This document shows positions 18,681 through 19,100 of a DNA stretch of 50,138 bases, piece after piece (position 1 is the first letter of the stretch; every line of letters begins with the position of its first letter). Source of the stretch: a virus. The notes under the pieces are model-generated. The model did not search any database. It worked only from the letters and a program-made list of their open reading frames with translations, and had not been told where the DNA came from. The translations under genes were made by a program, and so were the position numbers. Location of the stretch: positions 1 to 50,138 of IMG/VR virus record IMGVR_UViG_3300029947_000009, one strand, 5' to 3'.

Positions 18681-19100
18681 TTATCCTATATAGGCTATAC
18701 AGGTTTGCCCAGGAACCTCAGAACTAGAGGCCTCATCCTCCAAACCTTTCCTTACCGCATTCGTCACAGTAGCAACGAACTCCTGATTGGTGGGTTTTCC
18801 CTTATTGGAGTCCATATAGGAGAACAGATACCGTAAAGGAGAGTCTATACCCATCCTATTGAACACCAACTCTATGGCGTGCCGAATAGCTCTTTCTACC
18901 TGAGACCCATTTTTATCCCAGGAAGCTCCTACCACCTGATACATATAGGTAATCTGATGCAGGTTTCTGGGGTCTTGCAGTACCTTACAGACCAGGTCAG
19001 CCAGGTAGTTGTACCCCCTAATGGCAGGGGATACTCCTATGTAGTCCAGTTCTTCGTACACTCTACGCTTGATTTGGGGAGTAATAGTCATACCTTCCAT
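18681..19100 (-). CDS. Spo0A C-terminal (effector/DNA-binding) domain homologue with no receiver domain
   Basis: 139 aa. IGVSPAIRGYNYL, VERAIRHAIE and KPTNQEFVATV match the signature helices of Spo0A-C (B. subtilis IGVPAHIKGYLYL, VERAIRHAIEVAW, KPTNSEFIAMV). Confidence 0.85.
   Translation of the reverse strand: MEGMTITPQIKRRVYEELDYIGVSPAIRGYNYLADLVCKVLQDPRNLHQITYMYQVVGASWDKNGSQVERAIRHAIELVFNRMGIDSPLRYLFSYMDSNKGKPTNQEFVATVTNAVRKGLEDEASSSEVPGQTCIAYIG

Follow-up and report, generated by a model that had tools for sequence, protein, structure and literature searches.

The viral DNA of IMG/VR record IMGVR_UViG_3300029947_000009 (positions 1 to 50,138; this whole stretch of 50,138 nucleotides is called the window below) encodes, on its minus strand at 18681..19100, a stand-alone effector domain of the sporulation regulator Spo0A that lacks a receiver domain. 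Spo0A decides between growth and sporulation in Firmicutes, and most phages cannot replicate in spores; an output domain of Spo0A that is made by a phage and does not respond to the phosphorelay would let the phage act directly on this decision. We estimate at about 50% the probability that the protein binds 0A-type sites of the host independently of the phosphorelay, does so without canonical activation, and keeps the infected cell out of sporulation. About a third of this figure for a host-site binder rests on the direction of the effect, that is, on sporulation being blocked.

A Spo0A effector domain without a receiver

The open reading frame (ORF) of 139 amino acids (aa) starts with ATG and occupies the coordinates that a preliminary description of this DNA, made from the sequence alone, had assigned to it. 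That description aligned the protein by eye, along its length, with the effector domain and quoted short motifs, all of which we located in the protein: IGVSPAIRGYNYL at aa 21-33, VERAIRHAIE at aa 68-77 and KPTNQEF, quoted there as KPTN.EF, at aa 102-108. The profile search that it proposed returned the Pfam family Spo0A_C (PF08769) with E=1.2e-22; the 80.4 bits of this match exceed the gathering score of 25 bits, and it spans profile positions 1-102 of 104. Across Pfam, NCBIfam and PHROGs, the only matches to the protein were of Spo0A type. The NCBIfam equivalog model for full-length Spo0A (TIGR02875) matched only at model positions 150-258 of 262, and the score of 78.1 bits lies below the equivalog cut-off of 200 bits. 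The sequences of two Spo0A C-domain structures in the Protein Data Bank (PDB), 1lq1 and 1fc3, matched with E about 1e-15; rows for PPR proteins in the same table are summed sub-threshold repeat matches, and we disregarded them as noise.

Structure prediction gave the same answer. An AlphaFold2 model, made from an alignment 20 sequences deep, has a predicted local distance difference test score (pLDDT) of 87, a predicted template modelling score (pTM) of 0.80 and six helices (aa 8-21, 28-42, 44-60, 65-82, 88-93 and 105-126), of which aa 65-82 is the recognition helix of the helix-turn-helix (HTH). When we compared the model with the PDB using Foldseek, chains of 1fc3 and 1lq1 were the only matches at E<=1e-3, with target-normalised template modelling (TM) scores of 0.83-0.90 and root-mean-square deviations of 1.6-2.3 Å. 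We found no match to the receiver family PF00072 in the protein, whose N-terminus is helix A of the effector domain. The ORF upstream (19202-19684) had no Pfam match, and a hairpin and a promoter lie between it and the Spo0A_C gene. Profile, PDB sequence and structure comparisons thus all bear out the receiver-less effector domain of the preliminary description, and we conclude that the gene product is confirmed as a phage-encoded, stand-alone Spo0A effector domain. It is a member of the Spo0A_C family and not a Spo0A in the equivalog sense, because the receiver is absent, the score falls below the cut-off and the activation segment, described below, is replaced.

18681..19100, minus strand: Spo0A_C coding sequence, 139 aa; aa 8-126 form six helices, and aa 128-139 are a disordered, family-specific tail (..VPGQT..)

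The phage setting is equally clear. Bases 1-99 of the window are an exact direct repeat of 50040-50138, giving a genome of 50,039 bp; this 99-nt terminal repeat shows that the window is a circularly closed or terminally redundant siphovirus genome. We identified structural and lysis genes encoding terS, terL, an SPP1-type portal, a MuF head protein, an E-type major capsid protein, a tape measure protein, Dit, a Gp37-like tail protein and an M15 endolysin, and replication genes encoding a family-A DNA polymerase, a primase-helicase, an SNF2 helicase and a PD-(D/E)XK nuclease. No integrase, recombinase or partition gene was found among the window ORFs scanned, and because the first two are missing from these ORFs the phage looks virulent. 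Its DNA polymerase is 55% identical to those of the C. perfringens phages CPD4, CP3 and Clo-PEP-1, and its terL is 54-59% identical to those of Bacillus phages PBP180 and PM1, Clostridium phages phiCp-D and CB452P1, and Anoxybacillus phage A403. Hosts of the cultured relatives include C. perfringens, C. butyricum, Bacillus and Anoxybacillus. The endospore-forming host put forward in the preliminary description is therefore plausible, since the nearest cultured relatives infect Clostridium, Bacillus and Anoxybacillus, but not proven, since some Firmicutes regarded as non-sporulating have Spo0A homologs too (PMC13020158).

Conserved residues, divergence and 0A boxes

We compared the protein with 75 cellular Spo0A C-domains, in which 51 columns are >=90% conserved. 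Residue numbers are those of B. subtilis Spo0A (P06534); the sequence used for numbering matches the 1LQ1 chain over its C-terminal 101 residues, and VERAIRH starts at 212. The phage protein keeps 27 of the 51 near-invariant columns (29 in HMMER's register) and replaces 22-24. Residues kept relative to the cellular consensus are G165, I170, G172, Y173, Y175, T194, Y198, S210, V212-E221 and R226, together with K246-N249, E251, F252 and A254. In the recognition helix, S-x-V-E-R-A-I-R-H-A-I-E, residues S66 and V68-E77 of the phage protein match the consensus of the 75 sequences and R211Q is the sole change; the KPTN-x-EF motif is intact, with K102-N105, E107 and F108 matching the cellular consensus. 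Throughout the phage family, V-E-R-x-I-R and KPTN are invariant.

The replaced columns are T158Y, P167S, A168P, H169A, K171R, R177A, L197M, P199Q, A202G, T207K, T208N, R211Q, A223V, W224F, G227M, G237S, T239M, S250Q, D258N and L262K. Most are fixed to one other residue inside the phage family, and six of the changes (G227M, G237S, T239M, S250Q, D258N and L262K) fall at columns >=95% conserved in the cellular sequences. Neither the segment equivalent to B. subtilis 227-240 nor the C-terminal helix residues implicated in sigma-H-dependent activation are conserved; around helix E, a family-conserved S-P-L-W-x-W-F-S-Y stands in place of the cellular activation segment. We take B. subtilis 227-240 to be the sigma-A-activating region and 250-260 to matter for sigma-H promoters. 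Deletion of the activation region makes Spo0A non-functional for sporulation (PMC4690370). This pattern suggests a DNA-reading head that is intact, and a new, family-specific face made of the HTH surroundings and the helix E region. The protein also ends in a tail (aa 126-139, window 18681-18722; consensus ESQLPGQTKIEGV) that is kept in 10 of the 12 family members, is disordered in the model, is absent from cellular Spo0A and is unique in the six-frame translation of the window. In the other two relatives, ESGPSSL replaces this tail.

The close family has 12 members that are 54-99% identical, all 128-139 aa long and all stand-alone. The long contigs L001-L003 are syntenic with the window, and no near-identical DNA was found among GenBank phages. 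More distant relatives are numerous: 296 IMG/VR contigs carry a Spo0A_C relative, with a best identity of 42%, and of the best 80 of these 296 relatives, 64 are ORFs of <=200 aa, in 21 clusters. Matches to GenBank gut phages (n=12) are <=40% identical to the 139-aa protein. We also searched a library of 1.84 billion proteins, in which 4,210 clusters match at E<=1e-3; the best 150 of the 4,210 cluster representatives include 76 stand-alone proteins, 45 with a receiver-sized N-terminus and 27 tandem Spo0A_C arrays. These arrays (P0025-P0031 and 20 others) have two to four Spo0A_C domains and no receiver, and could, as covalent multimers, bind tandem 0A boxes without phosphorylation-driven dimerisation; we found no description of such proteins in the literature searched. 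In one bacterial metagenome-assembled genome (MAG; L005, 349-1085), a 102-aa receiver ORF and a 139-aa Spo0A_C ORF lie 8 nt apart. The pair represents a spo0A that has been split or frameshifted, and it shows that a short Spo0A_C ORF in a genome need not be a stand-alone gene.

Among species-representative genomes, none of the best 80 of the matches listed exceeds 44% identity, and ordinary full-length Spo0A accounts for about 75 of these 80; the best genome matches, among those listed, come mostly from gut Clostridia, with few from Bacilli. In a neighbour-joining tree, the window family has a long branch of its own beside other viral stand-alone sequences, and cellular Spo0A forms a compact crown. 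The preliminary description had suggested placing the protein against Spo0A of Clostridia and Bacilli. The placement beside viral stand-alone sequences names neither a donor lineage nor a host. The tree and the identities point to an old, diversified phage gene family and not to a recent capture. The ratio of non-synonymous to synonymous substitution rates (dN/dS) is 0.17 against L001 and 0.19 between L001 and L003, with synonymous sites near saturation, which indicates that the gene is under purifying selection.

Spo0A_C is among the most divergent genes of its block, far above its neighbours, as the identities between the window and three related contigs illustrate:

terL: 97.8% to L001, 84.8% to L003, 93.7% to L012
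terS: 95.1% to L001, 84.2% to L003, 79.6% to L012
orf160: 89.1% to L001, 78.6% to L003, 56.8% to L012
Spo0A_C: 65.4% to L001, 58.5% to L003, 37.5% to L012

In L012, the slot reads orf160, Spo0A_C, tRNA Met/Gly/Gln/Leu, terS. The Spo0A_C allele at this position (2902-3483) is closer to cellular Spo0A, scoring 124 bits on Spo0A_C against 80 bits for the window protein, and has R214K in the recognition helix and a Cys-rich C-terminal extension of about 70 aa. Such a divergence profile resembles that of an accessory, host-facing gene and is unlike what a core regulator tied to a conserved site would be expected to show. A second gene in the block, orf132 (19784-20182, minus strand; two genes upstream of Spo0A_C), diverges faster than Spo0A_C: it is 40-47% identical between related phages, has no match in L012 and gave no family match in our scans.

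We then asked where 0A boxes occur. A scan of the phage, suggested in the preliminary description, showed no enrichment: TGTCGAA is present twice (2.9 expected), and both copies (10410 and 45386) lie inside coding ORFs. The looser TGNCGAA occurs 20 times against 11.4 expected, mostly within genes. Matches with <=1 mismatch number 87 genome-wide, of which 12 are intergenic against 9.5-14.5 expected. Across 23 viral loci that carry Spo0A_C (275 kb), we counted 28 boxes where 29.4 were expected, and their positions relative to the gene followed no pattern. Neither the genome nor the 23 loci gave any hint that the gene regulates itself or that consensus 0A boxes drive phage promoters, which disfavours the earlier idea that the protein drives the phage's own promoters through such boxes. 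Phages that carry Spo0A_C are not themselves 0A-box-rich targets; therefore, the targets are most likely in the host.

We propose the following mechanism for what we take to be an apparently virulent siphovirus of a Clostridia-type (Bacillota) host; in it, DNA specificity, host targets and direction of effect are inferred. Without the receiver that keeps cellular Spo0A inactive, and with its base-reading helix kept, the protein would bind 0A-box-like DNA (TGTCGAA type) once made, independently of the phosphorelay. Immediate binding is expected because the receiver is absent and the helix is retained; the isolated DNA-binding domain (DBD) of Spo0A binds its legitimate targets unphosphorylated, the receiver's inhibitory contacts being absent (PMC3485338). 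Host 0A-box promoters would be the most likely targets, possibly with the host oriC, because the phage is not box-enriched and the gene is a fast-diverging accessory in a conserved backbone. Since a family-conserved surface replaces the sigma-A/sigma-H activation surface, we favour occupancy of these sites without canonical activation. The protein would then compete with Spo0A~P at activated promoters (spoIIA/spoIIE/spoIIG type) and mimic it at repressed ones, so that the infected cell would be held out of sporulation until the lytic cycle ends.

Four considerations weigh against this proposal. First, T207K, T208N, R211Q, K171R and R177A, which are close to the HTH, are among the 22-24 changes in 51 columns, and because these positions are otherwise near-invariant, affinity or extended specificity may differ from TGTCGAA. 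Second, the segment that replaces the activation region is itself conserved in the phage family, so it could still touch RNA polymerase or another partner and activate. Third, the roles that we presume for individual residues, in sigma-A/sigma-H activation and in base contacts, derive from mutant and crystal studies of B. subtilis. Fourth, in four related phages the terS leader, which directly follows the gene, contains a conserved 6/7 0A box, and the Spo0A_C and terS promoters are of one class; the leader box and the shared promoter class make a phage-internal role possible. Of the functions listed in the preliminary description (activating or repressing 0A-box genes, competing with host Spo0A, forcing, blocking or sensing sporulation, driving phage promoters), competition or occupancy at host sites nevertheless remains the most economical reading. 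The kept DNA-reading helix and the replaced activation surface therefore yield a falsifiable prediction, occupancy without canonical activation, for which the window is a clean test case: the genome is complete, the promoter is defined, the model is of high confidence, and there are several natural alleles, including that of L012, which is 37.5% identical and occupies the same slot although the backbone is near-identical. If the proposal is correct, it would show how virulent gut phages keep spore-forming Clostridia vegetative, and would provide a small, phosphorylation-independent tool for manipulating sporulation.

The terS leader and alternative roles

On the minus strand, the genes are ordered dCMP deaminase, orf132, orf160, Spo0A_C, three tRNAs, terS, terL and portal. 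The features of this block that bear on a phage-internal role are:

19184..19199, minus strand: palindrome or terminator-like hairpin between the upstream ORF and the Spo0A_C promoter
19147..19187, minus strand: sigma-A-type promoter of Spo0A_C itself (AGAGTTCTCTTATGGACAA, 17-nt spacer, TATAAT)
18658..18630: promoter-like site near the tRNA genes
18191..18532, minus strand: three tRNA genes (Met-CAT, Gly-TCC, Leu-TAG) between Spo0A_C and terS
18048..18088, minus strand: terS-leader promoter (AGAGTTTTATCATGGACAA-N17-TAGAAT), of the same class as the Spo0A_C promoter
17961..18004, minus strand: conserved terminator-like hairpin and T-run in the terS leader
17951..17936, minus strand: conserved element TCGACAAATTTTAATA; the plus strand reads TGTCGAG at 17946-17952, a 6/7 0A box
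17112..17909, minus strand: terminase small subunit (terS), which opens the packaging and structural operon downstream of Spo0A_C

Both hexamers of the Spo0A_C promoter are kept in L001 and L003, with a diverged spacer, and at the place of the hairpin at 19184..19199 these two contigs have a clearer G+C hairpin followed by a T-run. The arrangement of tRNAs between Spo0A_C and terS is common to L001, L003 and L012; an Rfam scan found only the three tRNAs. The terS leader (17936-18088) is 85% identical across the window, L001, L002 and L003, and is recognisable in L012. Its element TCGACAAWTTTTAATA, the complement of which reads TGTCGAG or TGTCGAT and so matches 6/7 of a 0A box, is kept in L012 too. 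No candidate for a phage-internal Spo0A-type site other than 17936..17952 is conserved in relatives. The leader folds no more stably than shuffled sequence (z = -0.86), so that energy alone gives no support to an attenuator reading of its hairpins; the leader might be a pac region or a late leader under antitermination control.

The promoters of the window fall into two classes. Seven strong promoters of the form CCATTTACA-N17-TATAAT, where chance would predict none, drive most operons and often carry a conserved A/T-rich upstream block:

12132-12163, 21789-21820, 24185-24216, 25206-25237, 26365-26396, 42467-42498 and 42992-43023: copies of the CCATTTACA-class promoter

The second class, AGAnTTnnnTnATGGACAA-N17-TAnnAT, has copies at 19147-19187 (minus strand), 18048-18088 (minus strand) and 27363-27409 (plus strand), each just after a hairpin and located upstream of Spo0A_C, terS and the Nlig-Ia/HD/ThyX genes, respectively. 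The Spo0A_C and terS promoters further share the motif AGAGTTnTnTnATGGACAA, with two exact matches against 0.07 expected. We considered the ATGGACAA promoter class as a clue to timing, but its third member drives nucleotide-metabolism genes, and timing cannot be inferred from it.

The genes for RinA/ArpU-type activators and Q-type antiterminators immediately precede terS or the late promoter, and Spo0A_C might likewise act inside the phage, as a switch of the packaging and late operon at the terS leader. Its position fits: the gene is immediately upstream of tRNAs-terS-terL-portal in the window, L001, L002, L003 and L012, and a terS-sized ORF lies directly downstream of it in L025. The leader, with its promoter, terminator-like hairpin and 6/7 0A box TCGACAAWTTTTAATA, has stayed 85% identical though coding sequences are near synonymous saturation, and the shared AGAGTTnTnTnATGGACAA would tie the two promoters together. 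We nevertheless regard such a role as rather unlikely. In 21 other dereplicated viral lineages, the Pfam families of the ORFs downstream of Spo0A_C are mainly those of replication and recombination (AAA_15/23/24, SSB, RecT, ERF), and Terminase_2 is found in 2/21, so we rejected the late-activator slot as a general rule; in 19 of the 21 lineages, Spo0A_C is surrounded by replication and recombination genes, away from late genes. L012 keeps the leader element and a 94% identical terL, yet its Spo0A_C is 37.5% identical and has R214K; this mismatch counts against the idea because co-evolution with the site would be expected of a core regulator. The candidate site is a single one, and 6/7 matches are common by chance, as the 87 matches with <=1 mismatch show. 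Conservation of the leader may instead reflect a headful pac site, a promoter or a terminator, the same-class promoter at the nucleotide-metabolism genes indicates that the class is not late-specific, and the leader fold, at z = -0.86, adds nothing in favour.

A more specific version holds that this divergent clade has re-purposed the effector fold as its own packaging and late switch at the terS leader, so that the protein is no longer a host mimic. In that case the family-specific S-P-L-W-x-W-F-S-Y surface and the PGQT tail would serve to contact RNA polymerase or some other partner. We think this somewhat less probable again; if true, a sporulation response regulator would have given rise to a new family of regulators of phage late genes.

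The preliminary description also raised constitutive activation. A protein behaving like sad67-type variants or the isolated C-domain would switch the Spo0A regulon on and force early stationary-phase or sporulation programmes, for example trapping the phage genome in spores or altering host physiology. The isolated DNA-binding domain is indeed free of receiver inhibition (PMC3485338), activation is one of the possibilities raised by Schwartz et al. (PMC10294663), phages phi29 and Nf use sporulation for entrapment via Spo0A sites (PMC2731898), and I229, D230, S231 and F236 of the activation segment are kept in HMMER's register. The claim is weakened by the replacement of the sigma-A-activating segment: G227, G237, T239, S250 and D258, near-invariant in the 75 cellular C-domains, are all replaced. 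In addition, the phage has the look of a virulent one, since it encodes a DNA polymerase and a primase-helicase of its own and its scanned ORFs include neither integrase nor partition genes, and it has no phi29-like 0A boxes that would silence it in a sporulating cell; forcing sporulation would therefore hurt its own replication. We consider constitutive activation improbable.

Still less probable, in our judgement, is a role directed at replication, in which the protein would, like Spo0A~P in B. subtilis, bind 0A boxes at the host origin and block new chromosome rounds, freeing nucleotides and replisome factors. Spo0A inhibits replication by binding origin regions in B. subtilis and phi29 (PMC2731898), most viral lineages embed Spo0A_C in replication/recombination modules, and the window gene shares its block with dCMP deaminase and has a large set of nucleotide-metabolism genes nearby. 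Against this, neighbourhood in phage early regions is weak functional evidence. The role is compatible with binding of host sites as proposed above, and the two are not exclusive.

Finally, although the gene is shorter than its cellular counterpart and a split spo0A exists in one bacterial MAG (L005), the idea of a non-functional remnant of a captured host spo0A, or of an assembly chimera, is effectively refuted by the selection and synteny data: dN/dS is 0.17-0.19, at least four independent assemblies contain the intact ORF with its own conserved promoter and ribosome-binding site, all 12 family members measure 128-139 aa, the genome is closed, and a long separate branch with no identifiable donor lineage speaks against recent capture.

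Several features elsewhere in the window are recorded here in their own right. A dense set of nucleotide-metabolism genes (20175-20783, 27789-28993, 31768-32957, 33715-36890 and 40079-40666) encodes dCMP deaminase, an HD hydrolase, ThyX, a thymidylate-kinase-like protein, dUTPase_2, a thymidylate-synthase-like protein and DUF1599 ('nucleotide modification associated'); the DNA polymerase A of the set has an N-terminal domain of the UDG superfamily, and the phage may have modified DNA bases. The MuF-like head-morphogenesis protein (12167-14005, minus strand) is fused to an ADP-ribosyltransferase exotoxin domain, and an ADP-ribosylglycohydrolase gene lies in the early region (25490-26314, plus strand); the pair may be a virion-delivered toxin with a phage-encoded eraser. 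At 21959-22191, in the control region from which the leftward and rightward operons diverge, five tandem units of ~48 nt each contain a CGTATATGCATATACG-type palindrome and form a candidate origin or operator array. This array overlaps the nominal TTG start of ORF 22082-23338, the true start of which probably lies further downstream. A 73-aa HTH ORF (27117-27338, plus strand) resembled SpoIIID in Pfam at E=0.0012, but its 19.4 bits are below the cut-off of 27, it had no PHROG match, and its sole PDB match is an unrelated HTH protein; we did not count it as evidence of a second sporulation regulator. Its counterpart in L003 (1248-1529, minus strand) matches the PHROG 'sporulation stage III protein D' weakly, with E=2e-4.

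Comparison with known systems

The window protein shares with cellular Spo0A (P06534; 1LQ1 and 1FC3; C. difficile CD1214) the six-helix fold, VERAIRHAIE, and KPTN-EF at the start of helix F, and is 36-44% identical to the C-domains of Clostridia and Bacilli. Unlike cellular Spo0A, it has no receiver, phosphoacceptor or linker, scores below the TIGR02875 cut-off, and is not encoded at a chromosomal spo0A locus. Compared with the constitutive forms made in the laboratory (Spo0A-DBD and sad67-type variants), it equals the engineered DNA-binding domain in architecture (PMC3485338), with no receiver-mediated dimerisation; unlike Spo0A-DBD, it is natural and diverged.

RinA, ArpU and Ltr families are late-gene regulators encoded upstream of terS in Firmicute siphoviruses. 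The window-family gene is likewise directly upstream of the packaging operon, but it has no sequence relationship to these families and its position is not conserved in most other Spo0A_C phages. With phi29 and Nf (PMC2731898), the window phage shares an interface between phage and sporulation that runs through Spo0A and 0A boxes, in reverse: phi29 carries the sites and uses the host protein, whereas the window phage carries the protein and has no excess of sites. Phage homologs of sigF/sigG offer a precedent for the blocking direction, since their ectopic expression is reported, in the work cited as ref. 13 in PMC10294663, to have changed host transcription and cut spore yield. They too are phage copies of a host sporulation regulator; they differ from the window protein in family and in step, Spo0A acting at initiation and through the DNA-binding output domain of a response regulator.

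The closest precedent comes from Schwartz et al. (2023, mBio 14:e00182-23; PMC10294663), who mined metagenomes and described spo0A homologs without a receiver in phages of the human gut; we found no experimental follow-up of these in the literature. The window protein resembles these homologs in being phage-encoded, in consisting of the effector domain only and in the argument for phosphorelay independence. It differs from them in belonging to a separate, more divergent clade (<=42% identity in IMG/VR, <=40% to GenBank gut phages), in its replaced activation segment and family-specific tail, and in coming from a complete genome with defined neighbours. Receiver-less phage spo0A was thus already published in 2023, and the window gene is a new and unusually divergent example of it.

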